NCBI GenBank assembly: GCA_045613865.1
Contig: JAZLBT010000015.1
Location: 42,913 to 106,912, forward strand
Direction of reading: 5' to 3'
DNA: 64,000 bases
Origin: Candidatus Spyradenecus sp.
Lineage (GTDB): Bacteria; Verrucomicrobiota; Kiritimatiellia; RFP12; DVOR01
Position numbers and translations under genes: made by a program. The notes below the pieces were generated by a model. The model searched no databases. It worked only from the letters and a program-made list of their open reading frames with translations, and was not told the DNA's origin. This document shows, piece by piece, positions 2,401 to 55,750 of the stretch (position 1 is the first letter of the stretch; every line of letters starts with the position of its first letter).

Positions 2401-2533
2401 ATTCCGCTTGTAATTTCTCGGCTAATAAGGTATCCTATTTAGTCAATGGTCACAAAAGACCAACTGTGAAGTTTTCAAAGTCGTGGATCACTTCACACCC
2501 ACAACCCTCACGACAACGTTAGGATATATCCAA

Positions 2534-3025
2534 ATGGATATTTATGTTGGCAATCTTGCCTACGCAACTACCAGCGAAACCCTTCGTGCTGCTTTTGCAG
2601 CCTTCGGCGAAGTCGCTTCGGCAGAAGTCAAAACCGATCGCATGAGCGGTCGTTCTAAAGGCTTTGGTTTCGTTGAAATGCCCAATCCAGAAGAGGCAAA
2701 TGCCGCCATTGCTGCGCTCAATGAATCCGAGCTCGATGGCCGTAACATTCGTGTGAACGAATCGAATCCCCAAGCACGTGATAGCCGTCCGCCTCGCCGT
2801 GGTGGTTTTGATCGTGGTCCTCGTCGTGAAGGTGGTCGCGGTGGCTTCGGTGGCGGCCGTGGTGGGTTTGGAGGAGAACGTCGCTCCTTTGGCGATCGTC
2901 GTGAAGGTGGTCGTGGTGGTTTCGGCGGTGGCCCTCGTCGCGAAGGTGGCCGTCCGGGTGGTCGCGGTGGCTTCGGTCGTCCGCGTCGTGAAAAGAGTGA
3001 TGTGCCTCGCGAATCGAAGTGGTAA
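2534..3025 (+). CDS. RRM-domain RNA-binding protein with a C-terminal Gly/Arg-rich (RGG) tail
   Basis: IYVGNL (RNP2) and KGFGFVEM (RNP1) motifs are present. The C-terminal 75 aa is made of GGRGGFGG and RREGG repeats. The likely start is the internal ATG at 2534 (MDIYVGNL); the ORF track starts at 2483. Confidence 0.8.
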   Translation: MDIYVGNLAYATTSETLRAAFAAFGEVASAEVKTDRMSGRSKGFGFVEMPNPEEANAAIAALNESELDGRNIRVNESNPQARDSRPPRRGGFDRGPRREGGRGGFGGGRGGFGGERRSFGDRREGGRGGFGGGPRREGGRPGGRGGFGRPRREKSDVPRESKW

Positions 3026-3108: not shown

Positions 3109-3462
3109 TCAATAATATTTCACACGATATCGACCAAAACAGCAAAAGATTGTGAGCACTTCAAGCTCTGCATAACGGAGCGGCATTCCTTGGTCTATCT
3201 GTTTGGGAGACAAGCATTTATTGTTCCATGCAATGTCGATACGAGGCTGTGGCCAAAAGAAGTAAAAATTCTCGTTTTCTGCAATTGGAAAAGCGGTAGG
3301 ATCACACGCCTTAACGTCAAGTGTCAAAGGGACTGTATAGCTTGTTAAGAACCACCCTGTCGACGGTTTTAATGGTGCATCAAAGAAATTTGCGCACCCT
3401 GTAAAAAGGACGCAACTCAACATGCAAAGCACGATTAAAAAACATCGAGACTTATTTACCAT
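3109..3462 (-). CDS. Small lipoprotein, divergent TRL-like family member, tandem paralog of the next gene
   Basis: Signal peptide with lipobox LFTGC. The N-terminal half (FLTSYTVPLTLDVKA) parallels the neighbouring paralog, and the protein ends in an aromatic/Tyr-rich C-terminus. Confidence 0.4.
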   Translation of the reverse strand: MVNKSRCFLIVLCMLSCVLFTGCANFFDAPLKPSTGWFLTSYTVPLTLDVKACDPTAFPIAENENFYFFWPQPRIDIAWNNKCLSPKQIDQGMPLRYAELEVLTIFCCFGRYRVKYY

Positions 3463-3787
3463 AAACCCTCACGGTCGTCGATTGATAGAGACCAAAGAAG
3501 CTAAAGTTTTCGTAATCTGCAAAAACGATTGTCTTGAGGTCTCCATTTCTTGCCGCAGTGTAAAGACTACAGTCTCCAATTGCAAAAAGACCACAGATAT
3601 TGGTTGTTGATGCAGTACCAACACGCAATTCATCCACTGGCGTATCATTAAACTCTGTTGAGAGTGGCGCAACTGTTGCCGTGAGTAGCATCGCTTGCGA
3701 AGGAACAAAAGGTGCGCGAGGTCCTGTTGCACAGCCTGTAAAACCCAATGTTAGTATAAGACAAAATATCCACAATCCACATTTCAT
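3452..3787 (-). CDS. Small lipoprotein of the TRL-like family (PF13146-like pattern)
   Basis: Lipobox GFTGC. The segment LLTATVAPLS...NICGLFAIGDCSLYTAARNGDLKTIVFADYENFSFFGLYQSTTVRVYG matches my recollection of the TRL-like signature (T.V.aPL, ilGL.a.GD.S, aA.kngGI.kI, ilG.Y). It overlaps the 5' end of the 3109..3462 gene by 11 nt. Confidence 0.5.
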   Translation of the reverse strand: MKCGLWIFCLILTLGFTGCATGPRAPFVPSQAMLLTATVAPLSTEFNDTPVDELRVGTASTTNICGLFAIGDCSLYTAARNGDLKTIVFADYENFSFFGLYQSTTVRVYGK

Positions 3788-4140: not shown

Positions 4141-4218
4141 TAAGTTAATTTGATATCTTAACATCTCCTCAATGCTTCAAAATCAAACCACATGAAATGG
4201 CAAATAAAACATGGCACG

Positions 4219-4305
4219 TTTGGGATTCAAACAGGGCGACTTTGCGATTCAAACAGGGCGACTTTGGGATTCAAACAGGGCGAGTTTGAGATTCAAACAG
4301 AGCGC
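4219..4305. repeat. Four tandem 22-bp direct repeats (TTTGGGATTCAAACAGGGCGAC)
   Basis: Units start at 4219, 4241, 4263 and 4285, with an exact 22-bp period. Three units are near-identical and the fourth is degenerate (TTTGAGATTCAAACAGAGCGCG). The array is about 165 bp upstream of folP. Confidence 0.85.
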
Positions 4306-4469
4306 GTTTAAAACGAGGCAGTTATAAACAACTTGTCAACAAGCAAAATCTACTTGGTTTGAGTGTCTCATTTTGTTTAATTTTTATTCTTGTATCGTTA
4401 ATACCTATTTTATATTTATTATTTTTATGTTATAATTAAGATAGTTTACGACGTTTTGGAGTTTGGTTT

Positions 4470-7215: not shown

Positions 7216-8582
7216 AAATGTTACCAATGAAATATCGTTGGTTTACTTGTGCATTTTTTGCATGTGTGCTCGCAATTGTTGCTGCGATTTTGACAGATGC
7301 ATTTCTTGCACATTGGATTCCTAATCCCGATTTCTCTCATTGGGGTGAAGCCCCTTTAACAGAGCGTAGTCAACATATTCTTGATACAACACAGGGACAT
7401 GTTCAGGCGACGGCAATCTTTTCGAAAGATTCACCCATTAGCATTCCCGCAGGTCGTCTTCTTCGCACCTTTGCACAGGTGGCAAAAAAAGGCGGCTCGA
7501 TGGAGATGCAATTAAGTTATATTGATCCGCGTATTGATCTTGCCGGAGCTGCGCGCCTTAAAACGTTAGGCGCAAAGGGCGAAGGCGTCTTTTTGCAGCA
7601 CGCTGGTCAATCAACGTTTATCCCCTCTGAACATCTTTGTAATGGCGAAGGCTTATTCCATCTCGCAGAGGCAGAAGAATCGATCGCCGCAGGCATTCAT
7701 CGTTTGACACGTGGGTCTATTAAGGTCGGTTGGTTAACAGGTCATAATGAACCCTCTTACACAAATGCGGATTTGCTCAGTGGTCTCTCTGGCTTTGCTC
7801 GACTTTTACAAAACCAAGGCTATGTCATTGAGCCAGTGACCATTGACACACTCAATGCTGAAGCACCCATTCCACACGACATTCGCATTCTCTTTGTTGT
7901 TGCACCACAACTTCCACTTACCACAGATGAAAGTGCAATTCTTTTTGACTGGGTAAATGATGGCGGTCGTTTATTCTGTGCGTTACCAGCAAAGGATGAT
8001 GGTGGCATTGCTCCGCTTGCAGAACGTTGGGGAATTGAAATTGGGCATCAACCGATTCAACCTGTTCAAATCGACATGAATGGCGCAGGTCTCACGCGTT
8101 CACTTTCCAAAACACATCCTATTACACACGAATTTGACGATTCCGTAATAATGACATTTGTTGCGCCTCGCGCACTCGTCTATTCGCAAATCCAACAGAT
8201 GACGATTGAATCCATTGTTCAGATGCCCGATCGTCGCCAAGAAAAGGATGCGCGTTTACAAACAATTATGGCCGCCATTGAACGTGACGCCACGATGGGT
8301 GATGATTTAACATTGCGCACTGGCCGTATTCTCTTGTGCGGCGATGCACACTTCCTCGAAAATCGTTATCTCACACATTACGCAACGGCAAATCGCGAGC
8401 TTGTTGTTAATGCAATTTCTTGGTTGGGAGGCATTTCTACAGAAGGACAACAAAATGTGCTCAACATCCTTCGTGTTGCTCAAGACTCCAGAAGTTGGAG
8501 ATTGGACTTTCTTATGTTAGTGGGTGTTTATCCCCCTGTCTTTATCGTTCTTGTATGGTTGATTTTCCGGAGGCGCAAATGA
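7212..8582 (+). CDS. GldG-like protein (ABC-type uncharacterised transport system auxiliary component family)
   Basis: N-terminal and C-terminal TM helices flank a large extracytoplasmic domain. The C-terminal segment LLCGDAHFLENRYL...ANRELVVNAISWL resembles the GldG family signature (GDSDF..N). ATGA overlap with cdaR. Confidence 0.4.
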   Translation: MKMLPMKYRWFTCAFFACVLAIVAAILTDAFLAHWIPNPDFSHWGEAPLTERSQHILDTTQGHVQATAIFSKDSPISIPAGRLLRTFAQVAKKGGSMEMQLSYIDPRIDLAGAARLKTLGAKGEGVFLQHAGQSTFIPSEHLCNGEGLFHLAEAEESIAAGIHRLTRGSIKVGWLTGHNEPSYTNADLLSGLSGFARLLQNQGYVIEPVTIDTLNAEAPIPHDIRILFVVAPQLPLTTDESAILFDWVNDGGRLFCALPAKDDGGIAPLAERWGIEIGHQPIQPVQIDMNGAGLTRSLSKTHPITHEFDDSVIMTFVAPRALVYSQIQQMTIESIVQMPDRRQEKDARLQTIMAAIERDATMGDDLTLRTGRILLCGDAHFLENRYLTHYATANRELVVNAISWLGGISTEGQQNVLNILRVAQDSRSWRLDFLMLVGVYPPVFIVLVWLIFRRRK

Positions 8583-11962: not shown

Positions 11963-14407
11963 ATGGGGTTGAAAGGATTTAAAATGTCCGATTCTGGAAA
12001 AACAAAAGGACGTAGCCTTTATTATCACCGATATTCTCCTCAGCTCCTCGGCTCAGGGGGAACATCCTATGGAGCCCCAGCCTATGGTGGAAGTTCTTAT
12101 GGCACCAACGCTTACGGCGGAAACGCATATGGCGGCAATGCTTATGGAGCAAATCCAGACGAAGGGATTGGTTCTTTAAGTATTGGTCGTATCTTCCGGG
12201 TTTGCTCAACGCACTGGATGACCATCTTTGTTTTTCTTATTTTAGGTCTCCTTGCATCGTTTGTCATCTTCCAACTCCTTCCTGAAAAGTTTGAAGCTGA
12301 AGCATATTACGAAATGCGCGTTCAAGGCCAAACACTCGTTGAAGGGCGCGTTTATGCAGATGAAGGTCTCGGTGGTGGCGTTTCACCCTTGAAGGAAGTT
12401 TTCAATACGCGTCGCGAACTGTTTAACACGAAAGCAGTTCAAAAAGCCGTTATTGATAAATATCGTGCAAAGAATGTTAGCTCGCAAGTTTCCACAGACG
12501 AACTTGAACGTTGTCTTAAGGAAAACACAGAGATGGAGCTTATGCCGATGTCGCGTTTGGTTCGCGTTTCGGTTGTTGCAAGTAATCCTATTCTCGCCTC
12601 TGAACTTGCAAATATTTACATTGATGTCTGCCGCATTTACATGGAAGATCTCAATCGCGCACAAGCGGAATCTGCTGTTGCATGGTTGATGACCATGGTT
12701 GATAATGAAGAGCACATTTTGCGCGACCTTGATCGCCAGCTTCTTGAAGCTCGCCAAGGCCGTCAAATCGACTCCTCAAAGCGTGAACGCGAAAATGTCC
12801 AACAGCGACTTTCCTCTCTTGATTCGCGTCGTATTGAACTCGATACCGCAATCTTGAATGCAACCGAACTTCTCTCTGCTCTCGCCATTGTTAAAGATGA
12901 TCCCACGCGTTTCGGCACTTTGCCCGAATCTATTCCGCGCTCAACTGAAATCGCTGAAACTTATCAGCGTTGGCAACAAGCATCTACCGAAAAATTAACA
13001 CTTCTTACGCGTCTTACAGAAAACCACCCCGATGTAAAGTTAAAGGTGCGCGAAGAAGAGCTTTATCGTACACAATTTGCAGAAACAGCTTTACGCGCCT
13101 ATGAAACAGGTGAAGCTCAACTTGAACTTCTTAAGCGTCAGCGTGACCCCATTCTTGAGGATGCAAACAATCTCCGTACTCGCCTCATCGCTCTTGACAC
13201 AGAGATTATTGCCTCGGAAATGGCGGTTCAACAGTTGGAACGTGCGCGTGAACTCGAAGTTGAAAAAGCCGCCGACCTCCGTGCTCGTGCTCGCGTTGCA
13301 CAGTTAAAGGCTGACGAAAATGCTGCAACAATCAAACTCGTTCGTGAAGCCTTGCCGCCAGAAGAACAGTCAAGTCCAAATCCTTACATTGTTTTCCCTG
13401 CAGGTATTATTCTCGGTATTGTCATTGGCACTATTTTCGTTCTTCTTCTTGACCATATGGAAGACAAACTCGTTGGTGTCTCTGATATTGAACAGCGCCT
13501 TCGTCTTAAAGCACTTGCCGTCTTCCCGCACTTACGTCGTAAGCAACGTTCGCAAGTTGCTCTTACGATGCACGATGCTCCATTCTCGCAATATGCAGAG
13601 TCAATGGCAGGCCTTCGCAACCTTCTCGACTCTCCACGTTATCATGATTTAACACGTGTTATTCTCTGTATGTCAACCCAGCCTGCAGAAGGTAAGACGT
13701 GTACATCAACCAACCTTGCTATCGCCTATGCACAATCGGGTCAGCGCACATTGCTCGTTGACTTTGATATGCGTCGTCCGCGTTTGGCGGGTATCTTTGG
13801 TCGTACAAATGATAACTTCCCCTCTTTGCCACATATTCTTGCTCGCAATGATAAGGCTCTCTTTGATACCCTTCCGCAAGAAACCCAGGTTCCTAACCTC
13901 CACGTGGTCATGTCTCGTGCATCCAACTCCATCAGTCCCTCGGTTCTTATGGGTACAAATGTGATTACAGAGTTCTTTGATTGGGCTCGTTCCAATTATG
14001 ATCACATCATTATCGACTCTCCGCCGTTTGGTTTAGTTGGTGACGTTATTGTGCTTGCGAACCTTGTGGATGCCGTTCTTCTTGTGGCCACTCCCGATAA
14101 AACCCGCTTTGGGCCAATCCAATTTGCAGCTCGTCGCTTGACTGAAGTTGGCGCTCGTATTCTTGGTGTTATCGTCAACAATGTTGACTTCGGTCGTTGG
14201 GCCGGATTCGGAAAGTACGAAACCCGTTATGGCTACGCAACCGCAACTTATGTTCCTCGCGAGCGAACAAAAGACAACCCTGATGAACTTAAAAAGGCAG
14301 TCTTTACGGTTGACCCCAATGCGGCGCCAATGCCAACAGAAAGCGACTCAATCTTCTCTCCAGAAGATCAACCCATCAGCGATGAACTTGCCTCTGATGA
14401 TGATTAA
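11963..14407 (+). CDS. Polysaccharide co-polymerase / Wzc-type tyrosine autokinase (chain-length determinant + P-loop BY-kinase domain)
   Basis: There is a TM helix after residue ~80, a long coiled-coil periplasmic region and a second TM. The cytoplasmic part carries Walker A (PAEGKTCTSTNLA), Walker B (HIIIDSPP) and a C-terminal Tyr cluster (YETRYGYATATY). The N-terminus carries AYGG(N/S) repeats. Confidence 0.75.
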   Translation: MGLKGFKMSDSGKTKGRSLYYHRYSPQLLGSGGTSYGAPAYGGSSYGTNAYGGNAYGGNAYGANPDEGIGSLSIGRIFRVCSTHWMTIFVFLILGLLASFVIFQLLPEKFEAEAYYEMRVQGQTLVEGRVYADEGLGGGVSPLKEVFNTRRELFNTKAVQKAVIDKYRAKNVSSQVSTDELERCLKENTEMELMPMSRLVRVSVVASNPILASELANIYIDVCRIYMEDLNRAQAESAVAWLMTMVDNEEHILRDLDRQLLEARQGRQIDSSKRERENVQQRLSSLDSRRIELDTAILNATELLSALAIVKDDPTRFGTLPESIPRSTEIAETYQRWQQASTEKLTLLTRLTENHPDVKLKVREEELYRTQFAETALRAYETGEAQLELLKRQRDPILEDANNLRTRLIALDTEIIASEMAVQQLERARELEVEKAADLRARARVAQLKADENAATIKLVREALPPEEQSSPNPYIVFPAGIILGIVIGTIFVLLLDHMEDKLVGVSDIEQRLRLKALAVFPHLRRKQRSQVALTMHDAPFSQYAESMAGLRNLLDSPRYHDLTRVILCMSTQPAEGKTCTSTNLAIAYAQSGQRTLLVDFDMRRPRLAGIFGRTNDNFPSLPHILARNDKALFDTLPQETQVPNLHVVMSRASNSISPSVLMGTNVITEFFDWARSNYDHIIIDSPPFGLVGDVIVLANLVDAVLLVATPDKTRFGPIQFAARRLTEVGARILGVIVNNVDFGRWAGFGKYETRYGYATATYVPRERTKDNPDELKKAVFTVDPNAAPMPTESDSIFSPEDQPISDELASDDD

Positions 14408-15865: not shown

Positions 15866-17846
15866 CACGTTTCGTGTCGGAGCTCGTGACTCTCAACTTT
15901 CACTCTTACAAGCACAAGAAGCCCTCCAACAAATAACGGCGTGCACAGGTGTAACATTTACACTAATTCCATTTTCTTCTCCTGGAGACCGAGACCAAAC
16001 CACAGATTTATCCATAAGTGATGACGATTTCTTTACCCGGGATCTTGACCATGCATTAATTTGTGGAGATATTGATTTTGCGATTCACTCGGCAAAGGAT
16101 CTTCCGCCTAACGGCTATACTCACGATATAGATTGGTTCTGGCTTCCGTGGCGAGAAGATCCGCGGGATAGTCTTATTTGTCGTTGTGAAAATCCAAAGG
16201 TGATTGGAGTCAGTAGCATTAGAAGAATTAACTGGGTTAAACAAAATCTTCCTAATGCAACATGTAAATCCCTAAGAGGAACAATTCCGTTACGCCTTGA
16301 AAAGCTTGATCGTGGCGAATATGATGCTATTCTTGTTGCAGCGGCAGCACTTCATCGCTTGGGGTTGCAACATCGAATTACACGCTATCTTTCATTAGAA
16401 GAGCTTCCCGTTCCAGAAGGTCAAGGTGTTTTAGCCATTACCCATCGTAAAGACGACAAGCGGATTCAGCAATTACGTAATTTGTGGCTTAAAAGTGTAC
16501 GTTTTATTGGTGCAGGGGTTGGTTCTGCAGAATTATGTACACTTGCAGGACTTCGAGAAATCCGACAAGCAGATACAATTATTTATGATGCTCTTATGGA
16601 TGCAACCCTTCTTAATGAAGCTCCATCCGCAAGAAAAATCTATGTTGGTAAACGAAATGGTGTTCATACACTTAAACAGCCAGAAATAACGAAACTCATC
16701 GAAACACATGTTCGTCGAGGAGAACGCGTTGTTCGACTTAAAGGTGGAGACCCTGGGCTCTTTGGCCGCCTAACAGAAGAAACCGATGCGCTCATTCATG
16801 CAAACATTCCATTCCGAGTTTGGCCTGGCGTTTCTGCTCTTACTGCGGCAACGACCGCCACAGGCCTCTTACTCACAGCAAGAGGCGAGAGTCGTGGCTT
16901 TACAGTCTCAACACCACGTAGTGAAAGCGATGCCATAAATGCCGTTTACTTTATGGCGCTTGGTATTGTTGAAACCATTACCGCTCAACACGCTTCTGAT
17001 ACACCTTGTGCCATCGTTACAGATGCAGCAACACCCAATCAAACAATTGAACTGATGACGGTTGGCCAGCTTCATAATCGTTCTACCAATCGCCCAGCAC
17101 TTCTTATTGTTGGACCAGCAGCAAAACACCTTTTCCAGCCATTAGGACCGCTCGCAGGAAGACGCATTTGGGTCACAGGAAGCAACTCTATTGCAGAAAA
17201 GGCTCACCGCATAATCACCGATCTTGGTGGCATACCAATTCTCTCCCCATTGGTTCAATTTAACCCCATTGATCGTATTAAAATCCGACCGAGTAAAGGC
17301 TATAATCTCCTCGTTTGCACCTCCCCCACTGCGGCAAAACTCTTTTTTAGCGAAATGGTCTCTCCTATCGTTTATATGCCAAAGAAAGTTGCTGTTACAG
17401 GTCCAGGAACCGCATCATACTTCCAACCATATAACATCGATGTTATATGTCCAGAAAAAGACTTCTCCGCAAAGGGGCTTCTCGCAACTCTTCCAAACGA
17501 TCTCAGCGGTATGAAAATCCTTCGTATCCGTAGCGTTGAAGCAGGAACAGCATTGTCAGAGGCTCTCAAAAAACGAGGGGCAAAAGTAAAAGATCTACCA
17601 TTTTACGAAACGATTGCATTGCCAGAGCCTCTCATTCCTCCGCACGACACAGTCTTTCTTGCTTCGTCCTCTGCTGCAAAAGCATGGCTAGCAAGTGGAG
17701 CTCCCCGAAGTGTCTCTATCATCGTAATGGGAGAACCAACAGCAAAACCTTTACGTGAGGCGGGGATTGAACCAACCTTTATTGCTCAATGTTCTGCCGT
17801 TGAGGACCTTTTTAATGCTTATAGCGCAAAGTTTATTTATGGATAA
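15858..17846 (+). CDS. Tri-domain fusion of truncated porphobilinogen deaminase (HemC domains 1-2), uroporphyrinogen-III C-methyltransferase (CobA/SUMT) and uroporphyrinogen-III synthase (HemD)
   Basis: HemC-like segment: [61 protein letters not shown] segment: [39 protein letters not shown]. The C-terminal ~230 aa is HemD-like. Start MSNTFRVG at 15858 overlaps the upstream stop. Confidence 0.6.
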
Positions 17847-19170
17847 TCGTTACGAAACCATCGCTGCACTTGCAACCGCACCAGGTCTAGGTGGCGTTGC
17901 AATTATTCGTTTAAGTGGTCCAGAGGCATACCCCATCGCAGACCAAATAACATCGCTCAAAACGCCTCCAAGCAAACGCCACGCAAATACCTTTGTACAC
18001 ACTTCCCTCTATAACTCGAACAATGACATTCTTGATGATGCTCTCGTGCTTTTTTTCCGCGCGCCCCACAGTTATACAGGAGAAGATACTGTTGAATTCC
18101 AAACACATGGTGGTGCAGTTGTTGCACAGTTAGTGCTTGAGCGACTCTATGAACTCGGTGCGCGACCTGCGGCACCAGGAGAATATACACGTAGAGCTTT
18201 CCTTAACGGGCGCTTAGATCTTACCCAAGCAGAAGCCGTTGCCGATCTTATTTCTGCACGTACACCTCGCGCAGAGCGAGCGGCACGTGCGAACTTACAA
18301 GGACGTCTAGGGGCAACGCTCCTTCCACTATACGATGATACGCTTCGCCTTTCCGTTGAAACAGAACACCTCTTAGACTTTGACGAAGGCGAACTCCCCG
18401 AAGACTTTTATTCCGAAGCACACAATCGCCTCAATGCACTCTCTCAACGTGTAGAAAAAATTCTCTCGACGTGGCACGAAGGACGGCTCGTTCGACAAGG
18501 TGCACTTGTTGTTCTTGCAGGAAAACCTAATGCGGGAAAATCAACACTTCTAAATCTTTTGCTTGGATACAACCGTGCAATCGTAAGTGATGAAGCAGGA
18601 ACAACACGAGACTCTTTAGAAGAGACGTTTATTCTCGATGGTGTGCCCATCCGTCTTACAGATACAGCAGGCCTACGTGATGCACCCACAGCAATTGAAC
18701 GCGAAGGCGTTGCCCGTGCACGCGATTTGGTTGAACAAGCCGATGCAGTCCTCTATCTCATTGCAACAGGAACAGAAGATACCCCGCCACAAGGCGCAAT
18801 CTGCATTCAAACAAAAGCTGATCTTCTCGATAACGCCACACCGTGCTCAAATGCGATCTCTATTTCTGCAAAAATTAAACCGGAAGAAGCTCGTAAAACA
18901 ATCTGTAACGCGCTTCGCGAAAAGCTGCAACTCTCCGCTGGCGAAACGACTCACGCAACGCTTGCAAATGCACGTCAATATGCCGGTCTTACAGAAGCTT
19001 ATAACGCCCTCCTCTCTGCACATCACGAATTCTCCCGAGGAGAAATGGGCTATGTCACAGCAGCACAACAACTCCGTTGTGCTGCACAATCTCTTGGACA
19101 ACTCCTTGGACGTGTTTGGAGCGAAGACCTTCTTGATAATGTCTTTTCTTCTTTTTGTGTTGGTAAATAA
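17839..19170 (+). CDS. mnmE: tRNA modification GTPase MnmE (TrmE)
   Basis: N-terminal [21 protein letters not shown]; G-domain [12 protein letters not shown] and DTAGLR; C-terminal CVGK tetrapeptide. The start at 17839 overlaps the upstream stop. Confidence 0.9.
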
Positions 19171-20166: not shown

Positions 20167-20410
20167 ACGTATGTTTATATAAAATGGTGCTAATTGTGCA
20201 CCATTACAAAGCACTTCATAGGGCTACTTTGATATTAATATAAAAACAAAAAAAGCGCAAAAACGCAAGCATTCTTTTTTGAAAAGAAGGAATATCACAA
20301 AAAACACTCTAAAGATGCTATTTTCTATCCCTCCAAGGCGATTTTAAGCATCTCAAACCAAGCTTTCTATCGCACTAAAACGTTATAAAAAATAGACTCG
20401 CGTTAATTTT

Positions 20411-20497: not shown

Positions 20498-20574
20498 TGG
20501 TGGGCTGTGCTGGACTCGAACCAGCGACCCCTACCGTGTGAAGGTAGTGCTCTAACCAACTGAGCTAACAGCCC
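20498..20574 (-). tRNA. tRNA-Val (anticodon CAC)
   Basis: Reverse complement GGGCTGTTAGCTCAGTTGGTTAGAGCACTACCTTCACACGGTAGGGGTCGCTGGTTCGAGTCCAGCACAGCCCACCA folds as a 77-nt cloverleaf. The anticodon loop TTCACAC and T-loop TTCGAGT are readable, and CCA is encoded. Confidence 0.9.
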
Positions 20575-20578
20575 TAAA

Positions 20579-20652
20579 TGGAGCGGGCGAAGGGAATCGA
20601 ACCCTCGTAAGAAGCATGGGAAGCTCCTATTCTGCCATTGAATTACGCCCGC
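20579..20652 (-). tRNA. tRNA-Gly (anticodon CCC)
   Basis: Reverse complement GCGGGCGTAATTCAATGGCAGAATAGGAGCTTCCCATGCTTCTTACGAGGGTTCGATTCCCTTCGCCCGCTCCA folds as a 74-nt cloverleaf. Anticodon loop TTCCCAT; CCA is encoded. Confidence 0.9.
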
Positions 20653-20819
20653 AAAACGCAATGAAGAATACCAAAACTCCAAATAAATAGCAAGATTTTT
20701 CTTTCTTCAAAAAGAGAATTCACAAATATTTCTCTCGTTTCTCTCATACAAAACAACCTTCTTCACCCCCCGATTCTCTGCTCTTACCCTCATCAAAGAC
20801 GCGTAAAAAGTCCCTTTTT

Positions 20820-20885
20820 CAAACAGGTGCTATTTAACGAACAAACAGCACCTATTTAACGGGCAAACAGCACCTGTTTGAGACA
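20820..20885. repeat. Three tandem 22-bp repeats of the CAAACAG family (CAAACAGGTGCTATTTAACGAA / CAAACAGCACCTATTTAACGGG / CAAACAGCACCTGTTTGAGACA)
   Basis: The period is exactly 22 bp. The GGTGC core is inverted to GCACC between units 1 and 2. Unit 3 forms the imperfect palindrome CAAACAGCACCTGTTTG. Confidence 0.8.
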
Positions 20886-20980
20886 CAAAGCAATACGGTT
20901 TCATTTAGAGAATAAAGCTCCCTTTTATAACGCATAGGGTTCACTCACTTAAAACATCTCTTCACATAGGGTGTAGAAAT

Positions 20981-21010
20981 TAAAAAGGCGGGTTTTCACC
21001 CGCCCTTTTG
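20981..21010 (-). terminator. Rho-independent terminator directly after the giant gene 1 stop
   Basis: On the minus strand: GGGCGGGU-GAAA-ACCCGCCU followed by UUUUUAAUUU. The hairpin starts 2 nt after the TAA stop. Confidence 0.75.
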
Positions 21011-21011
21011 A

Positions 21012-24000
21012 TTATTTCTTACGTTCAAGTTTTTTAACGTCTTCTTGCGACATCAAGACAACTTGGAAGTATTTACAATCCGTTGCGATATTGAGAATAC
21101 GTGGCGCGCCGCCAGAGGTATTCACATCCGAAGCGACATCCAACGTTTGGACAAAATACCATGCAGGATCAGAAAGTGTCTCCTTTCCAACAAGAACAAG
21201 TGTACCATCTGCATAGAGTTGCTTAATCTCTGTTGCACCATTCATAAGTGTAACCGATGCCTGAACACTCTTTTCTGCATTGTTTTCGATTATACCGAAA
21301 GCCGAGAAGCAGAGCGAGACATTGTCACCATTATCCGTAAGTGCGTCATCAAAGCCAAGCCAATACTTTTCTGACAAATCAATCGTACCACTGTTCATTG
21401 CTTGAGCAACGTCAGATGGTGTACCAGAGGCGATTAACCATGCTTCATAGCCAGCATCTTGAGGAGCAGAGTCCTTCAACTTTACAAGGATCTTTTGCGC
21501 TTCCTTATTCGGCACCAACATAACAACATAATTCTTGTCTGTATCAAGGAGCGCCGAATCATAAGAAGACGTCGATACCGAGCGTAAGCCAAGGCCATTA
21601 TCATCCTTTGACGGATCAAAGTCAATACAGTAGCGTCTTAACGTCATTGTCTTCTTTGTCGTGTTCAACGTTGTGACAAGATCCGTTGCGACCTTCACCT
21701 GACTAGAAGCAGCATTACTTAATGCTACATCAACATCAAACCACTCATCCGCAACCGGCTCAAGTGTCAAACGATAACGTGTATTCACTGGGAGATTTGC
21801 CACCGTAAACGACGAAGCTCGAGTCTTCAACGCCGTCAAAATGTCATTTCCTTCTGCATCTGTATAAACACGAGCAAGATCAAAGGTTGGCGTTGGCATC
21901 TTTGCTTCAAGCGCATTCAAGCCCAACGTTCCACCCATATAGCTTGCGCTAATTCGATACGTCCGCGAGATGAAGGCTATAAATTCATCCAACGACATCG
22001 AGGAATAAGGCTGCTTGAAATAATCGCCAGAGAAAGTCGCACTTGTATTATTATTGGGGCCAGGAATTGTAGAAACACCCGAACTTATTAAATAATCCAT
22101 GGGGTACCACACGCGCTGTTGATTTGCAATCGCCTCAAGACCAGATCCATTCTTCTTATAAACATCTACAAAGAGAATAGACGTATTACCCGCTAATCTA
22201 CCAATTGCGATGTTGACATAACGAATAATATTAGAAGAAGCAAAAGACTGCGTCTCAAGGGTTGCAATCTCCGACAAACGCGCATCAAGCGTCAACATCT
22301 CACCCAACGAATCAACTGCATTTTCGTTATTATGCGAGAAGAGAATCTCATCGGCAACAACACCATTATTACGCACGAGCTCAATACCAAAAACAAGTCC
22401 ATCCTTAGCATAATCTACGCCAAGTTCACTGTTAAGATACTTCACCAATGCGTCATAATTCGGGAAGATTTCCATCGTACCAATAGTAGCATCATCACCA
22501 AATTTCGTCTTTTTACCATTCTCTTCAGTCAACAATTCCACCGGGATTGTTGGCGTCTTCAAATAGACGAATTGATCAACATCCATTGCAGGGACAAGTG
22601 TACCCGTTCCCGAGCCATCGTCAACATATTCTCCCGATTGCTTAAGGCATGTAGCATAATCCAAACGCGACAACTCTGCCGTTAACGGATTATATGCTTC
22701 ATCAAACTTAAGATTCGTGATTTCATTATGACTTGTAGCAATTGCATAATAATCAATGCTATCTGCACTTGCATCCGTCGAAACAATACGCTTACCAGGA
22801 ATCCAAGACTTCAACTCAATCGTACGATTATAAAGCGGATGATCCATTGCAAGCATATCGGTCGAACGCGTCCAATTAAGTTTTGTTTTAGCATCCATTG
22901 TCGTTACATCTGGCATCGGTGCATACTTCACAACAATCTTCCAACCATCCAAGGATTGTGCCGGACGATAAAGTTTCTTAGATCCGAAATCAACTTCTGT
23001 AACCGTCGTTGCACGCATTGCAAGTTCAATCGCAGAACCATAACTATCTGTGTGGAAAGGACGAATTTCGTTAATCCAGACATCATTATAACCGATGGAA
23101 TAAATCCATGCATAAGGTGCCACGCCAGCCTTTTGACTCGTTGCCACATAGTTCACATCCGCACGATCTTCAGGAACATACCACGGGCAGTAAACAGGAA
23201 GATTGTCAGACGAGAAATTCGAAACGCCCTGGCAATCAATAATTTCACCCGTTGTTACATCCACGAGAACAACTGCGAAACGAAGAATGGCGCCTTCCGA
23301 CCACACACTTTCATTTTCAGCATTCTTCATCGATAACGTTGCCGTCAACGGAACAAGCGAGTCCTCATTCTGGATCATTGCCAACGCGCCATCATCGTCT
23401 GTTGTCGACGGATCACCCGCATTCAATGCCGCTGTAAGTTCGTCATTCGTCATCACTCGGAAGGCAAGATACGGTGCTTCCGAATCCTTCTTCAAGGCTT
23501 CAACCTCTTGTAATGTCAGCGAGGTCTTATTTTCGAAATCCTCTGTTTCAACTTGATCATCAATCGAACCGCGAATACCCTGAAGCGTCATCGGCAAAAT
23601 ACCACCCTTAACATAAGGCAAGCTCATCGACTTACCACTGTTAGCAAGTTGAAGATTGGTGCGCAACTTCTTGAAATCTGCCGTTACACCATCTCCAATT
23701 GCAGGCATTGCGCCAAACAACTTTGAAATATCCCAGTTTGCAAGGAAAGTTGTTGCACTTTGAGAAGCTGCCCCCGTAAAGAGATCGGAAGGCACTTTAT
23801 TTTTATCGGTCAATGCCCAAACAAGCATCGGAACAACCGTTGGCTTTTCAGAGGTCATCTCTTCAATAATGGTCTCACGAGCATACAAACCATTATCAGG
23901 GCGAATCACTGCCGACATCGACAAGGTATCACCAATCAACGGCTGATAAATCCAACCATGCTTATCACAATGTTCGCCTTCACCATTACCGATTTCATCA

Positions 24001-27000
24001 TCCCAAATAGGATTGGTTACAACCTCACCACCCTTTGTTAAGTCAGGAGCACCAGTGCTATCCAATCCATAGAAGCTCTGAGATACAAGCCATGCACCAA
24101 ATTCAATGCTACCAGGACGCATTGCCATAACAAGATTATTTGTTGCAGACGCCGGTTCTGCAATGAGAAGAACTGCAACCACATAATCATCTGTATCTTG
24201 GAAGAGCAATCCCGAGGTTTCATCAACCACCGCATCGCCATTAAAGATAATACGACCCGTAAAGGATTCTTCACCCGCGACCTCTGCAGTTGCAAAACCT
24301 CCGAGCTCAACATATATGCGAGCCTTTTCTGCATTTGACGTGGCAGTCTCTGCACGATAATAGGTTTCCCGTGCAAGCATCAACAAATCACCCTGCGAGA
24401 ATTCTTCACCCTTTGCAAGACGTTTGCCAACAAGAAGTACTTTACCCATCCATTCTGCAGGAAGCGTCAAGTAATCATAGGTATATCCCACGCGAGGACG
24501 ATAGGTAATCACACGCTGAATTTGATTCTTTGTGATATCAGAAACCCACGAATTCGCAGCAAACGATTCTTCTGCTGTAGCGCCAATAACTGTCGTTTCC
24601 GTTGGCACATAACCAAAGGCTTGCCAACCACAAGGCGATCCACCATAAACCGTATTCAACAATGTTGATGTCACACGAATGCGATTCCATTCGGGATTCG
24701 AATCAAGACCAACATCACCATTGGCGCCATTCTCTGTGCCGTTAGTTTCAGAGGCAACAAAACGCCACAAGGTTCGCTCTGCGCGGGTTTCACGCAAGAT
24801 GTCACCAAACTCATCGGTCGTTGTACCACCGACCAACTGAATCGAACCTGCTGTATTCAAGGCATCCGTTTGCCCCTCTACAATGTAGTGGCCAAGCGTA
24901 GTAGAAACATCGGTGGTAGCAGGAATACTACTTCCACCATTAGCTGTAACACCCGTCCAAACGCCACCCTCGCCTGCACCACACGGACGAATCAATGCAA
25001 CGGCAACAGCATCTTCATTTACATCAGTTGCCGTCTTAGCAACAAACTTGTAAGAGAAAGATGAAATCGCATCAAGCGCTTGAGCATCGCTCATATCCAC
25101 CCAGTCCATCGCTGTTCCACCTGGAACAGTATATTGGACCTTCCATCCATCTGTTGTAACTTCTGGTACACCTTCACCAAGACCTGCCCCAAGAATACCC
25201 TGACGCAACTTTGGAATAACCACTTCAACAAATGGCTCCGTTCCCGTACCTTTAACAAGGTTAACCTCATTCAACCACACCGATTCCGGAGGTGTGCTAT
25301 AGAGGTAGAAGTAAGGGATTTCTCCTTCTTGCTTTAATGGCGCATACCACTCTGGCCATGCATAACGAGGACTGGAAGTATCCTGAGGAATCAAATACTG
25401 AATTGTCTCTGTCGATGCACCCGATTGTACCGTAACGGCATAAACACCCCAGGCAAGATAGGGAATCTTTGGCTCCTTAATTATTATATTGCCATTAAGA
25501 TCCTTTTTCATATAGCTATCACCCAAGACCGTTACACACGTTGGGCTATAAATCTCACTTAAAGTGTCATTCACTTTACGCGTCAAGTCTAATACCGCAG
25601 AGCGCAAATAACCAGCGTCTCCCAACGCATTCATCTCGGCTTTAGCTTTGTCAAAGGTAAGACCCGTTAACGCAAGAATCTTATTCTTCCACTCCGTCCA
25701 CATTGTATCATCAAGATATGCAGTGGGATACGTGATAATCGCCCCAACAAGGCGTGCATTCTTTGCCGCTAATTCCGCGGTATTATATTTCACACTAAAT
25801 CCGAAGGCGCTACCACACCACGGTTGATACTTCGCATCACCCGTAAGCGCATCACCACAGAATGGCGAAACCTCCGTAATAATATCCTCTGCACCCTCTG
25901 CTGCAACAATATAATTTGCAGATAAGGTAAAGGAATACTTCGTTCCATCATTAAGCTCTGGAATCAATTGTAGGACAAGACGATCCACATTCTTTGGCTC
26001 AAAGGTTGCGACCATCGTGTTCGGTTGATTGACATCCGAAGCAAACGTTACACTAAACGAAGTCTCATCTTCAACGATTAAGTTTTTAAGCGCTTCTTCT
26101 GTTGCAACGGCCACACCATCTTCTGTACTTGTCGCAGTTAATGTAACCTTTTCAAGTTTATTAAACGGGAAGGCGGTATAGGTAACTTTAACCTTTGATC
26201 CATCAGGAATCGTACGATAAATCATATCACGACCACCAAAGATCGTTGTTGTACTAATCCCATTTTCATCAAGGAAGTCAACCATATGCTGACCAAGACC
26301 ATTAACTTGAGAAGAGATTGTATTACCATTTGGATCTGCATAGTAAATCAACCACTGATCAAGGTTAATTTGACGAGGTGTAACTTGAACCTCTTTATTC
26401 GTATCTCCTGGACGAGCCTGTTCTGTCAAATTGAGCGTTATATTAAACGGAGAGGCAAAAAGGTGGCTAACATCTAGCTGCCCCTTTTCCTCATTTTCCG
26501 TTCCAAGGGGTGTATTCGCATTGGTACGCATAACCCAAGCACCACCCATGTCGATCGTTGCAATCGAGTTTACGCGCTCCTTGCTTGAAGAACGAGCATC
26601 ACCAATAAAATTCTCTGTTGTGCCATTCTTGTCATAAATGCCATCGGCATTTGTCTTAAATGTCTTCACAACAGCGAGACGACGTGCATGATCTGCAGAT
26701 GTATAATTCGCATCGGGCTTATTCGTCGAGGAATCCCAATCTTCCTCACGGAAACTTTGGAACCATTCTGTACCGAAGCCTTCTTGTTTATAAGCAGTAC
26801 GATACTTTGTTGCTAATGCATCCAGACGAGACTCGGCATTGACAGATGATCCTTGACCATCTTGCCACAAGCTGTAAAGCACAATATGCTCTGCACCACC
26901 CGTTGGACGATAGAGGCGAAGCGCAACAGCAGCACTGTTCGTTCTTTCATAACCAGAATAAAGCCCCGTTTGTGCACGACCCGCATTTTTATGAGGTTCA

Positions 27001-30000
27001 CTCGTAACATTCTCATTATTTGCGAGAAGATTCGAATTCGCATTAATGATGGTATAAAATGTTCGATTCGAAAGCGGAGTTGCACCGCCCTGTGCAGGAA
27101 CTGCACCTGGATCAGGAACAAGCGGAGTCCCTTCATCTCTAATTGCAAAGGTCTCAACTGTAGAGAGTAAATTTGCATCGGAGATATCCGCGAACCAACC
27201 ATTCATGGAGTTCTTTGCCGGTGTACAGAATTCAATAAATCGTTTCATCAATGTTCTTGATGCATCGTTCATATTAAATTCATTAATAAAGACTTCTCCA
27301 GGAACGGTGTCATAAAGCCAAAAATAAGGCGTAAAGAAGCTTGAACCCTTTGTGTCAAAGGCGCCAACACCTGCATTTTCCGCATTTGAAGCAAGCTCAT
27401 TACAACGTGTACGCATTTCCGTATTAAGATTGCGCGGGAAATACCATGGGAAATCGGTATACGAGCCAGCATCAATAATCGAATATCCATAGCGTGGATT
27501 ATCCTCTGTACTATCCTCTGTTTCAAAAACCGCCCATACGGCATAACGCACAAGTCCATTTACTTTCAACTTCTTTATTTCATCAAACGCATCCGCATCA
27601 TCAGAGATTGTCCTAAAGGTTTGCTTTTCCGACGGCTCATCCTGACGCGTAAGCAAGATGGTATTTCCTTGCAAACTTGTCAAACTCTCAAGACCAGAAG
27701 CGGTTAACGCATCGTAATTTGCTTTATTCTCTGCTGCATCCAAACGCATGAAGGTGTCTTCAATTGCAGCACGCTTTGTTGCAAACCATGTTTCGAGCCC
27801 CCAAGCATCCAATGCTTGGGCAGCCTCTTCAAAGCTTGCCTTTGTGTCGCCAAGATTTTCAGTAATAGAAACATTCGATTCTATCGTAGGATCCCATGCA
27901 TAAATCGGTGTTGTTGCAGCTTCAACCGTTGTATCCAAAGCATTTCGGTAAGAATAATCCGAAGTAACACGTTTCATCTCCGTTGGAACATTCCACGTAA
28001 AGAAGACCTTAATTGAATCTTTCTTCACTTGCTGCAACCGATCCACTGTCACTTTTACCGCAAGAGGAGAACCCGCAAGTGGTTGAGAAAGCGGCGAATT
28101 ACGACCATCGGCAACGTCAAAAATACCACTGGCGCCATCCAACACTTTCGTATGCTTTTCAAAATTGTCTCCCGGAAGCGTTGAGAAACAAACATTACTC
28201 AAGCGTACAGAGGGAGCAATTGGTTCTGTGATAGAAAGTTTATCCAACCAAATGCGACCATACGCCTCAACTTGAGGTACACCATTACGACCATCAACAA
28301 CTCCACCCTCTACAGGAACATGAAGGCGAATGCGCTTCAAACTCTTATAATTCGGAATTATTTTAGTCAAATCAACATCATATTGACGATAAAGCGTATC
28401 CTCGATTTTTACACGTGTAAGATACGTATAATCATCTGGGAAGGACAATGATTCATGAGCATCAATGGTTTCACTCTCATAACCATAGACATAAACATAA
28501 TGATTTTCCAAAGAAGGCTCGTCAAGACGTGCAGCAAAACTAATAATCCCCGCACCCTTTTCCAAAATCGGAGACTCTACATAAGACTGAAGCAAAGGAT
28601 TTTCAATGCCACCAACAACATCCTCTGTGATGTGGTCATTAAAAAGTACGGCGCGCGTAAGACGACTCTTCCATGCGAACGTCTTTTCATTAATATTTTT
28701 CGCAAGACGATCCTTCCAATAAAGAGATGCTATTGGCTCTTCGCTTAATCGAATGTTACCTGCACTCCAAAGCGCCACCTCGCCAGAACTTGACGTAATA
28801 CGGAAATCATCAAGATAAACATAGGGGTCATCAGTACTATCAATCGGAGAAACCATGACGAGTCGAAGAATACCACGTTCCATCGAAACATATTTCGAAT
28901 TTTCTAATAGACGCGGTGTGATTGACATCGTTCGCCATTCACCATTGGTTATAGGAAGCTCAATTTCTGTCGAAACATTTTCCCAACTCGACAATGGATA
29001 AGAATCATTCAAATTATCAGTATGAGAGCTTCGGGCATTTGTGTATTGAAGCAACAAACTCACCGAAGGATTCTGTACATTGTCTTTAAATTCACTTTGT
29101 AAAGGAATACGATAACGGAAAGAAATCGTTCCAAAGTTATCGCTCGAATAAGGCGTATAAAGCGCCAATGTACTTGCTGTATGATGAATATTATTCGTCG
29201 ATCCTGCAGAAAGTCCGTTAGAAGTGTTACGTCGAGAATACTGCATCAAGAGACACTGCTCACCCGTGTATTCCGTTGGCTGCGCACTATTTTGCGATTC
29301 GTCTACTGGCTGTACCCAAACACCAACAGCAGAGAAACCATCCGTTTCCGACTCATTCCAATGTGTATTGGTATAAAGAGGAACTTTCGTTCCATTACGA
29401 TTCGTATCATCACCCTGCCACGAGCTAACCGTCAAATCATCAATGAAGACTTCGTTCCCATCTGTTGCCACAAGCGAGAGCGAAAGATCTGCTCGACCCA
29501 CCGTGATAGAATACTCTTGCTCTGTATCTCCCGCGGTAAACACGGCTAATTGCTCCGATTTGCCCTCCGAAGCAGAATATCCATCTAACCGAACCTGAGC
29601 AGAGGTGTCCGCGGGGCGTTTGCCACGTTGAAGTTGTAACTGTGAACCACTTGCGCTATTCACGACCCACTTCGCGTCTGACGTAAGAAGTTCCACTTTT
29701 GTTGTGTCTGGGGTATATGTTAAACCCTCAAATGCGCCATTGGTCGCATTCATATAAACAATAGAGTTAAAGATCGGCCAACATTCCGCCGAACCAAATG
29801 CAATATGCGTTAATGTTGTTTGGGGAACTGTACTCGTTGATTTAATTGTTTTATTCGCAAAGGATGCATTCAAGAAGCCCGCATCATCAATCCAAAGTCG
29901 CGCTTCTTTATTTTGCATCGAATCCTGATTCGTTACATGATAGTCCTTAGTGCCATTATCAACCTCGAACGACTTACGTGTAGCAACGCCCCCTGTCCAT

Positions 30001-33182: not shown

Positions 33183-33183
33183 A

Positions 33184-34272: not shown

Positions 34273-34486
34273 AAACGGTCCTCTCATACTTAACTATATT
34301 ATATGTCAAAAAACAGTCAAAAGCAACTGTTAATCAATGTGTCAAAAAAAATATTTCAAAAATGCGCTTAAAGTGCCTTTTTTATGCATCTTCTTTTTTA
34401 AAAAGATTTCTTAAATAAAAAATTAACTCTTTTTTTTCAATTTTCGCGTACTTTCTCCATCTTATCCCCCCTACTCTTCTTAACAA

Positions 34487-37070: not shown

Positions 37071-37391
37071 TTACTCTTTAATTTTATTCTTTGCCTCGTT
37101 TACGCGCAAACGACGGCCCATGACATTTTTATCATGTAAAGCCTTGATTGCAGCTTCTGCTTCAGAGCGATAGATCATTTCAACAAATCCAAAGCCCTTG
37201 CTCTTATGATTATAACGATTTTCAATCACGCGTGCACTCTTCACTGTGCCATACTTTGCGAACGCCTTACGTAATTGTTCGCCAGTCATGTCATAGCTAA
37301 GATTGCCGACATAGATTTCGATCAGTTCCTTTTGCCCTTTATCGGCGGGTGCTTTCTTGCCAAAGGGCCAGAAGATGGAGAACCAACTCAT
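37071..37391 (-). CDS. RRM-domain RNA-binding protein
   Basis: IYVGNLSY (RNP2) and KGFGFVEM (RNP1). It has a short N-terminal basic extension and no RGG tail. Confidence 0.75.
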   Translation of the reverse strand: MSWFSIFWPFGKKAPADKGQKELIEIYVGNLSYDMTGEQLRKAFAKYGTVKSARVIENRYNHKSKGFGFVEMIYRSEAEAAIKALHDKNVMGRRLRVNEAKNKIKE

Positions 37392-39827: not shown

Positions 39828-40073
39828 GAAACATTCTCTCCTGATTTTAGGGCGCAATGCACCTTCGCATAATATTGCCCGCGTACCATTATAACAAAAA
39901 ATATCACACTCTTCTAAAAAAGTCAAGTATTTTAAAGAACTTTTATTTTTCCACCTCCTTTTCCTATGCAAAGCAAAAGCATCACATACGCTTAAACAAT
40001 TTCTTGACTTTGGGGATTCAAATCCTCTACAATAAGTGAAGTTCTAACAATTTAATCATTAAGGTCTACGATA

Positions 40074-54675: not shown

Positions 54676-54714
54676 ACCGTGTACCACTCCATTTCAAGGG
54701 GGTTTTTTATAAAA

Positions 54715-55371: not shown

Positions 55372-55750
55372 TTTTAGACCTCTTCTCTAATTCAATCATA
55401 CGGGAATAAACTATCACATCTACCCCAAATACGCAAGCATTCTTTTGAAGAAAGAGAAAAAATACACCCACCTTTTACTAACCTATAATAGAGAGCATTT
55501 TCCATCCCCTCCCACCCCCACTCTAACCACCTCTCAACACCCCTCAAAATTCCTCCTTTTTTCACTCGATTTTCGTTCTGGAAAATGATTTCCCTGCCCC
55601 CCATCCCATCATTCCCCAACAAAATTCCCAATCAAATTTCTCATTTAAAAGTGTCGCACACGTCTTCAATCTCCAATCGCCTACACCCCACGCAACGTTT
55701 CACCAACCTTTGTTATACCTGTTGATAAGCTGTGCATAACCCACGATTTT

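Follow-up and report, generated by a model that had tools for sequence, protein, structure and literature searches.

The 64,000-nucleotide stretch of DNA from Candidatus Spyradenecus sp. analyzed here (contig JAZLBT010000015.1; hereafter the window) carries three intergenic arrays of tandem repeats with an exact 22-bp period, at positions 4184–4315 (array 1), 20820–20907 (array 2), and 55751–55838 (array 3), which are related to one another. With moderate confidence, these arrays can be assigned to a dispersed repeat family of the type represented by repetitive extragenic palindromes (REPs) and bacterial interspersed mosaic elements (BIMEs) or by the BrickBuilt element, in which each unit is a putative phased binding site for a dimeric DNA-binding protein. 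The best named relatives of the elongation factor G (EF-G) encoded in the window are from Kiritimatiellia, and the arrays are a new family of repeats in a phylum that has barely been studied. No description of a two-turn dyad design was found in the part of the literature on 22-bp repeats in Prevotella and Bacteroidetes that was covered.

Three Related Arrays with a 22-bp Period

Arrays 1 and 2 are detected directly by Tandem Repeats Finder (TRF), at 4207–4304 for array 1 (period 22, 4.5 copies, 89% matches, score 145) and at 20830–20889 for array 2 (period 22). Array 3, which is too diverged for TRF, was recovered by a repeat-family search (families D5, D6, I1, I2, and I17), and the families tie it both to array 2 (D5, D6, I1, and I2) and to array 1 (I3 and I15); arrays 2 and 3 are partly inverted relative to each other (family I1). 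A three-unit pattern, consisting of CAAAC-N8-TTT-N6 repeated and allowing at most two mismatches, matches the window 10 times, always within the three arrays, against an expectation of 0.00 from 100 shuffled sequences, none of which matched. The 22-bp arrays proposed in an earlier reading of the sequence (hereafter the original prediction) are real. All six exact occurrences of AAAC-N7-GTTT in the 64 kb and 10 of the 19 CAAACAG heptamers lie inside the arrays, and a dyad model derived from the units matches 10–11 sites within the arrays and only 1–2 elsewhere, which is the level of shuffled sequences; the dyad site is not found singly outside the arrays above chance. Within the 64-kb window, the units are clustered in the arrays.

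On the plus strand, array 1 consists of six head-to-tail 22-bp units starting at 4184, 4206, 4228, 4250, 4272, and 4294, the first of which is degenerate; the units read CAAACAG-GGC-GA(C/G)TTTG followed by the linker GGATT, and every unit has the same, direct orientation. Array 2 (plus strand) has units at 20820, 20842, and 20864, which read CAAACAG-GTG-CTATTTA, CAAACAG-CAC-CTATTTA, and CAAACAG-CAC-CTGTTTG, the center being flipped in the second and third units relative to the first, and a degenerate unit at 20886. The units of array 3 (plus strand), at 55751, 55773, 55795, and 55817, are of mixed orientation and read GAAACCG-CAC-CTGTTTG, CAAACGT-GCC-GCAATTG (the array 1 type, reversed), CAAACAG-GTG-CGGTTTA, and CAAATAG-CAC-CTGTTTC. 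Array 1 is therefore longer than the four units originally assigned to it, with a fifth clear unit and the degenerate unit at 4184, and array 2 is extended by its degenerate unit, whereas array 3 has four units as claimed. The proposed shared core, CAAACAGG(G/T)GC, fits arrays 2 and 3 but not array 1, which reads CAAACAGGGCGA, two mismatches off; common to all three arrays are the half-site CAAACAG and the dyad frame. Because the second unit of array 3 is the reverse complement of the first unit of array 1 (family I15, 23 nt, 91%), the three arrays constitute one family. Apart from the units, no similarity is seen among the three intergenic regions.

Unit Anatomy and the Flipped Center

Each unit consists of a 17-bp near-palindrome, formed by two inverted heptamer half-sites and a 3-nt center, followed by a 5-bp linker. 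In 24 half-sites, the successive bases of the consensus CAAACAG occur 17, 24, 24, 23, 18, 15, and 16 times. The centers of the half-sites are separated by one helical turn (10 bp) and the units by two turns (22 bp); therefore, every half-site falls on the same face of B-DNA. This helical spacing of dyad half-sites is like that of an operator array. The arms in the window are 7 bp long and A-rich, and the 22-bp phase is strict.

The original prediction that the core is flipped while the flanks stay constant is borne out by the first two units of array 2, CAAACAG-GTG-CTATTT and CAAACAG-CAC-CTATTT. The flip can be explained by inversion of the 7-nt center between palindromic arms: AGGTGCT, bounded by the complementary dinucleotides AG and CT, becomes AGCACCT, and the asymmetric outer flanks are unmoved. 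The palindromic arms would allow the short center to invert without altering the site, and template switching or recombination between the arms could bring this about.

Because of their inverted units, arrays 2 and 3 are predicted to form long, strong hairpins (z = −3.9 and −4.2 for array 2, and −5.3 and −4.8 for array 3), whereas no fold is predicted for array 1 (z = −0.6 and −0.8), and a hairpin is therefore not a common property of the arrays. The hairpins raise the question of whether the arrays act at the RNA level, as a hairpin leader or attenuator, a terminator, an RNA stabilizer, or a sponge that captures RNA-binding proteins, for example the two RRM-domain proteins encoded in the window at 2483–3025 (plus strand) and 37071–37391 (minus strand), and REP and BrickBuilt elements have also been discussed as RNA stem-loops (PMC4596501; PMC3733652). 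Such a role is very unlikely, because array 1 is unfolded, arrays of the wider class described below often have single-base centers and a conserved C-C mismatch in the would-be stem, no array matches an Rfam family even at E values up to 0.5 (two tRNAs alone reach the threshold in the window), and the arrays are located beyond terminators but before promoter-like sites. The missing fold of array 1, the Rfam result, and the position of the arrays are also the reasons for placing the action of the family, in the model presented below, at the level of DNA.

The Same Design in Other Genomes

The three-unit frame was used to scan 596 Gb of sequence, in which each species was represented by one genome; because 21 bases are specified, less than one chance match is expected. 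At least 112 loci were found, mostly in Prevotella, Prevotellaceae, Bacteroidaceae, and Parabacteroides, and a few of the listed matches are in Lentisphaeria, Kiritimatiellae, and Treponema. Among the matches listed, the Bacteroidales arrays are intergenic, and a single genome has at least 6–9 loci of the wider class. The core differs from genome to genome (for example, CAAACTCGTCGACTTTG, CAAACAAGGCTTCTTTG, and CAAACTACCGGTAGTTTG). Within one genome, by comparison, the copies of an array are 90–100% identical, including the linkers and the order of the units, and their flanks match at random level; some Bacteroidales families have block-level flanks. Bacteroidales arrays frequently terminate with an inverted unit. 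No protein family is enriched among the genes beside 53 Bacteroidales arrays, the neighbors being unrelated housekeeping genes. This copy-and-paste distribution, together with the unrelated neighbors, resembles that of REP/BIME or BrickBuilt elements more closely than that of a regulon.

The scan pattern itself forced CAAAC and TTT. Of 59 distinct cores, 11 have complementary bases at all three of the unforced inner pairs, where chance predicts 1 in 64 (about one core), and 33 have G at position 17, which was likewise unforced. These counts indicate that dyad symmetry is kept while the sequence changes. In 108 arrays, deviation from the array consensus amounts to 7.8% in the core and 24.9% in the linker, which is thus approximately three times more variable, and arrays at orthologous loci are retained from species to species, being about as similar as the sequences that flank them. 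In the wider class, single-base dyad centers are common and a conserved C-C mismatch (CAAAC...CTTTG) is frequent, both of which argue against a hairpin function and for recognition of duplex DNA.

These data bear on a simpler explanation, namely that the arrays are neutral or selfish minisatellites produced by replication slippage and gene conversion, with no host function and no dedicated binding protein. This explanation, which we consider rather unlikely, would account for the species-specific cores, for near-identical copies with unrelated flanks and unrelated neighbor genes, for arrays between convergent genes, for the many arrays at the ends of metagenome contigs, as is typical of multicopy repeats, and for two features of related genomes described below, the absence of array 1 at folP and the spacers packed with other short repeat modules. 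Slippage, however, copies whole units; it therefore would not give the contrast between core and linker, for which it predicts equal divergence. Dyad symmetry and a period of 22–23 bp also recur over unrelated sequences in two phyla, orthologous arrays persist between species, and in four strains of a related species the unit number is fixed and single-nucleotide polymorphisms (SNPs) are found in the linkers alone. By the core/linker contrast and the equal unit number, the wider class does not behave as a variable number tandem repeat generated by simple slippage.

A second scan, of metagenomes for CAAACAG-phased repeats, revealed rumen contigs from a few projects that carry CAAACAG-GGG/CCC-CTGTTTG arrays. 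These arrays have the window's own half-site and a GGG/CCC flip of the center likewise, and adjoin housekeeping genes. On one such contig (L141), a CAAACAG-GGG-CTGTTTG array (342–430) lies approximately 300 bp upstream of a gene for a putative transposase of the PD-(D/E)XK type (PDDEXK_2, Rpn-like; 731–1615). This neighbor is a single case, and the PDDEXK family is not enriched beside other arrays.

Loci L001–L112 contain approximately 35 further tandem repeats with a 22-bp period and unrelated cores, beyond the arrays selected by the pattern (for example, L030 3732–3795, L064 259–341, and L010 3543–3608), several of which are dyads such as AAGTATcATACTT and GACCTAGGTC. Among the other repeats with units of at least 18 bp in these loci, a period of 22 bp (approximately 35 repeats) is more common than 21 bp (12), 23 bp (2), or 24 bp (5), and also far more common than 20 bp.

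Arrays in Relatives of the Source Organism

The closest FolP found is 63% identical to that of the window. Related Kiritimatiellia carry arrays of the same design with other cores. In L151 (EF-G 94% identical), 23-bp arrays of the perfect dyad GACCACTATAGTGGTC lie at 12580–12665 and 17870–17960, one approximately 470 bp downstream of fusA and the second copy 5 kb away. The L151-type array is present in four samples of one species (L151, L152, L155, and L156) with equal unit number, and its only two SNPs are in linkers; the spacer around it has large indels among the four samples. Array 3 of the window also lies downstream of fusA. Strict orthology of the two fusA-downstream arrays was rejected because the downstream genes are unrelated, and the loci are equivalent only in a loose sense. 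The L151 spacers additionally carry 8-bp tandem repeats (CCAATCAG and GGAAGCTT) and dispersed modules of 89 nt, forming an intergenic mosaic of repeats.

In L158 (and also L160; EF-G 89% identical), a 22-bp array of CCTCAcTGAGG dyads (7282–7370), the last unit of which is inverted, lies 150–230 bp upstream of a duplicated tRNA operon with the promoter TTGCAA-17-TGTTATATT. The position of this array relative to the tRNA genes matches that of array 2 relative to the tRNA-Gly/Val genes of the window. A more distant relative, L114 (GCA_965341595.1; FolP 49% identical), has a 22-bp array of TACG(T/C)CGTAAG dyads (16070–16225) in the interval that separates the end of its folP-cdaA operon from a convergent UbiA gene.

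A Proposed Model of Phased Protein Binding

To explain the design of the arrays, we infer protein binding, its cooperativity, and an effect on neighboring promoters. The three arrays would be copies of one dispersed, lineage-specific intergenic family acting at the DNA level. A dimeric, sequence-specific protein would occupy each 17-bp dyad, with the 22-bp phase placing all dyads on the same side of the helix, and adjacent dimers would touch, so that a short cooperative protein–DNA filament of 3 to 6 dimers is formed. Situated in untranscribed spacer 130–430 bp upstream of promoters, this filament could bend the DNA, insulate, or modulate the nearby promoter. The family would have been spread and kept uniform by copying, as are REP/BIME and BrickBuilt elements, and not by independent origin at each promoter. 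The operator-like character of the original prediction is supported indirectly by the inverted half-sites one turn apart, the units two turns apart, and the constraint on the dyad in the wider class.

Several points weigh against this model. No DNA-binding regulator is encoded next to any array of the window, and no binding protein was found. The window contributes only 14 units, in which no clear difference is seen in favor of a less variable core, and gene conversion confined to the core could give the core/linker contrast of the wider class without any protein. Array 1 is absent upstream of folP in L113 and L114, the two nearest retrievable relatives, and its site is not anciently conserved. 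Approximately 15 of 85 Bacteroidales arrays are found between convergent genes, a position in which a role connected with promoters is improbable, and the orientation bias relative to the neighboring gene (67:32) is inflated by orthologous loci. Finally, recurrence across phyla, in Bacteroidales and Kiritimatiellia, rests on design rather than on demonstrated homology: the window family appears to be linked to the Bacteroidales arrays by this design and by a half-site shared with a few metagenome contigs.

A more far-reaching version of the model can be put forward tentatively. The arrays may belong to a widespread class of 22–23-bp-phased dyad arrays in Bacteroidales and Kiritimatiellia, in which a species-specific core is matched by a fast-evolving partner protein that coats the arrays as a cooperative filament and shapes local transcription or chromosome structure. 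For this partner, a nucleoid-associated or architectural factor is conceivable, as is a transposase or recombinase that has been domesticated.

Should the arrays be phased binding platforms, they would mark a DNA-binding protein and a layer of promoter-upstream or nucleoid organization in gut Prevotella, other Bacteroidales, and Kiritimatiellia, lineages that dominate ecologically yet have received little study. In that case, the species-specific cores would represent a natural series of co-evolving protein–DNA pairs, useful for the study of specificity evolution and as a source of orthogonal parts. If the arrays are merely selfish minisatellites, they are an ordinary repeat family, the notable point of which is the recurrence of the design across phyla. 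Such arrays cause breaks in the assembly of metagenomes and may be taken in error for small open reading frames (ORFs), and knowledge of the 22-bp dyad design aids annotation.

Genomic Setting of the Arrays

The arrays are situated in spacer DNA 130–430 bp upstream of likely promoters. Array 1 lies in a 682-bp divergent spacer between a TRL-like gene (3452–3787, minus strand) and an operon consisting of folP, cdaA, ybbR, and genes for an ABC auxiliary protein, a DUF4340 protein, and a histidine kinase. The likely folP promoter is at 4409–4436 on the plus strand (TTTATA-16-TG-TATAAT, with an extended −10 element), and array 1 extends from approximately −130 to −260 relative to the putative start site. 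In L113 and L114, too, folP is preceded by a TGnTATAAT motif. In the opposite direction, array 1 is upstream of the TRL-like gene, at a distance of 397 bp when counted from the degenerate unit (4184) and of 419 bp when counted from the first of the clear units (4206).

Array 2 is located 168–255 bp upstream of the 5′ end of tRNA-Gly, past the terminator of giant gene 1 (20987–21004). The genes for tRNA-Val(CAC) and tRNA-Gly(CCC) are at 20498–20652 on the minus strand, and TTGCTA-17-TATTCT, just upstream of tRNA-Gly, reads as a promoter-like site.

Array 3 lies in a 1.3-kb spacer, approximately 830 bp downstream of the stop codon of fusA, which encodes EF-G, and of its terminator, and 380–467 bp upstream of the start codon of a lipoprotein-like gene (54715–55371, minus strand, 218 aa) that heads an operon with a giant gene for 4666 aa (40687–54687). 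A promoter-like sequence, TTGCGT-17-TAGTTT, is present at approximately 55436–55407 and is common to two other minus-strand genes (families D9/D12). Because this sequence is close to the lipoprotein gene, array 3 is probably upstream of the promoter, not in a long leader, where it had originally been placed.

These positions are compatible with the view that the arrays are dedicated operators or upstream activating sites of one transcription factor, with a regulon comprising the tRNA-Gly/Val genes, the lipoprotein-giant operon, and the TRL-like gene or folP. All three arrays are 130–430 bp upstream of a minus-strand gene or promoter, the L158-type dyad array is at a similar distance upstream of a tRNA operon, three independent copies in one Prevotella genome are 99–111 bp upstream of a TAnnTTTG promoter box, and direct repeats with a 21-bp period are the predicted targets of Bacteroides hybrid two-component system (HTCS) regulators (PMC3878776). 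Nevertheless, we regard such a regulon as unlikely. The neighbor genes have no common function, either here or at the 53 Bacteroidales loci, and no single sites are found outside the arrays, whereas regulons usually include such sites. The linkers and the order of the units have been carried along from locus to locus, which suggests that an element was duplicated rather than that operators evolved independently. In addition, tRNA genes are near just 2 of 112 arrays among the matches listed; association with tRNA genes was seen in two Kiritimatiellia genomes. The orientation bias of the Bacteroidales arrays and the recurrent distance of approximately 100–120 bp to promoter boxes in one Prevotella genome give a weak hint of an effect on promoters, confounded by orthologous loci and short spacers.

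Iterons, Transposon Ends, and Rejected Candidates

Iterons, the R1-R2-R3 sites of Mu, and Tn7R are classically composed of 22-bp sites arranged head to tail with an occasional inverted copy. The period, the 3–6 head-to-tail copies, and the occasional inverted copy of the window arrays fit this textbook layout, arrays 2 and 3 are partly inverted relative to each other (family I1), and the genome scan also recovered true iterons, as its two Acinetobacter matches consist of asymmetric units beside Rep3_N/Rep3_C (Rep_3) genes. The arrays might accordingly be thought to be iterons of a chromosomal or integrated-plasmid origin, as the original prediction had suggested, or multi-site ends of a Mu- or Tn7-like transposon, but this is highly improbable on several grounds. 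Pfam searches of the window ORFs checked, which were all those flanking arrays and most of the larger ones, revealed no Rep, DnaA, transposase, or integrase. The number of DnaA boxes in the window (16) is that expected (16.2), and the boxes are not clustered; cumulative GC skew declines through the greater part of the window, with a minor positive excursion at 4–8 kb and no sustained reversal. No plasmid matches the arrays, and the three-unit frame has 4 matches in 2.9 million viral contigs. The units are dyads, unlike the asymmetric Rep_3 iterons of Acinetobacter. With respect to transposon ends, the 35 kb between arrays 2 and 3 contains rpoD and glgP, and the Prevotella locus L022 has the housekeeping genes fmt, sua5, clc (a ClC channel gene), mrp, and trmB between two inverted arrays that are 6 kb from each other.

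Other candidates were rejected. Repeats of the CRISPR type are ruled out by the lack of spacers and by the 22-bp period. The strings TGGCAC and GCACC are reminiscent of a sigma-54 promoter or NtrC site, but their spacing does not fit GG-N10-GC, and there is one GCACC per unit. LytTR, PhoB, and LacI/PurR-type sites are mismatched in half-site sequence or arrangement. For the Prevotella arrays, the idea of a Bacteroidetes promoter was discarded; the 22-bp spacing of TTTG does not fit the −33/−7 geometry, and real TAnnTTTG boxes are 60–120 bp beyond the arrays.

Comparison with Known Repeats and Binding Sites

BrickBuilt is a minisatellite or MITE (a miniature transposable element with inverted repeats) from Porphyromonas gingivalis, a member of Bacteroidales, with 19 copies and reported promoter activity (Klein et al., 2015; PMC4596501). 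In its reported architecture, BrickBuilt resembles the window arrays in having spacer-free tandem units of approximately 22–23 nt with dyad symmetry, and in being dispersed, species-specific in sequence, and surrounded by unrelated neighbors. It is always intergenic, as are all arrays of the window. However, it has up to 23 units, the number of which varies among strains, whereas the window arrays have 3–6 units and the related Kiritimatiellia species has a fixed unit number in four strains. The window arrays also differ from BrickBuilt in having no leader, tail, or terminal inverted repeat, and nothing is common to them beyond the units; MITE-type terminal inverted repeats and target-site duplications were not found in the three intergenic regions.

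REP/BIME elements and their REP-associated tyrosine transposases (RAYTs) provide a second comparison (Nunvar, 2010, PMC2817692; Di Nocera, 2013, PMC3733652). REPs have been reported in bacteria of the Planctomycetes–Verrucomicrobia–Chlamydiae (PVC) group and in Bacteroidetes, and REPs with short stems were first noticed as tandem repeats. REP/BIME elements share with the window arrays a short palindromic unit that occurs between genes in multiple, apparently species-specific copies and sometimes forms head-to-tail clusters; the window has three copies in 64 kb, all intergenic. REPs are distinguished by an unpaired GTAG or CGTC tag (PMC3733652) and a longer, G+C-rich stem, and are usually inverted pairs at variable spacing. 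In the window, GTAG/CTAC or CGTC/GACG is present in none of the 14 units, and no Y1 transposase is encoded. The genome-specific REP-like family of the original prediction is upheld as a description, in its dispersed, intergenic, and apparently species-specific character and its unrelated flanks, but not in the tag.

Iterons of the Rep_3/RepA type share the 22-bp period, and the 3–6 head-to-tail copies, which would put bound proteins on one face of the helix, but they are asymmetric, adjoin a rep gene, and occur once per replicon, whereas the window dyads occur three times in 64 kb of chromosome. The lambda operators OR1–3 are 17-bp dyads at a spacing of 23–24 bp that are bound cooperatively by dimers. 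BOX elements of Streptococcus pneumoniae and the intergenic mosaic elements of Neisseria are modular, dispersed intergenic repeats that affect neighboring expression. These elements are similar to the window arrays in being intergenic, in having an internally reiterated unit, and in occurring as many dispersed copies; they differ in having units of approximately 45 bp and more and flanking modules. We know of no description of strict two-turn phasing of short dyads for BOX or Neisseria elements. HTCS/AraC-type sites of Bacteroides have a 21-bp period (PMC3878776). These sites and lambda OR resemble the window arrays in the approximately two-turn spacing of two to several adjacent 17-bp sites upstream of promoters; however, they belong to a single locus or a coherent regulon, usually with an adjacent regulator gene, whereas the window copies are dispersed and their linkers have been copied as well.

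Other Features of the Window

Two DnaA-box-like 9-mers, TTATCAACA and TTATGCACA, abut array 3 (55720–55739, minus strand); each has one mismatch from TTATCCACA, and they are 11 bp apart. The motif (A)AAAGAATGCTTGCGT is present on the minus strand at 20237–20287, 55405–55455, and 61567–61600, upstream of genes for an NYN-domain protein, the lipoprotein, and a GHL10 protein. It reads like a common −35 region, TTGCGT-17-TAnTTT (families D9/D12), and the TTGCTA-17-TATTCT sequence before tRNA-Gly is similar. In the spacers at 55500–55640 and 20740–20800, which are upstream of minus-strand genes, the plus strand is C-rich and G-poor (for example, ccccatcccatcattcccc), and GC skew is −0.26 in the 54–56 kb bin.

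The two giant ORFs, at 21012–33191 (minus strand, 4059 aa) and 40687–54687 (minus strand, 4666 aa), have one Laminin_G_3 domain as their sole Pfam match. The 4059-aa giant follows a gene for a protein with a prepilin-type N-methylation motif (33184–34287), and the 4666-aa giant follows the small lipoprotein gene. The RRM protein encoded at 2483–3025 has a C-terminal Arg/Gly-rich tail derived from in-frame repeats of 9–39 bp (2803–2989). A primary-type sigma factor of 837 aa, encoded at 37458–39971 on the minus strand, contains regions 1.1 to 4 and an extension of approximately 300 aa ahead of region 1.1.

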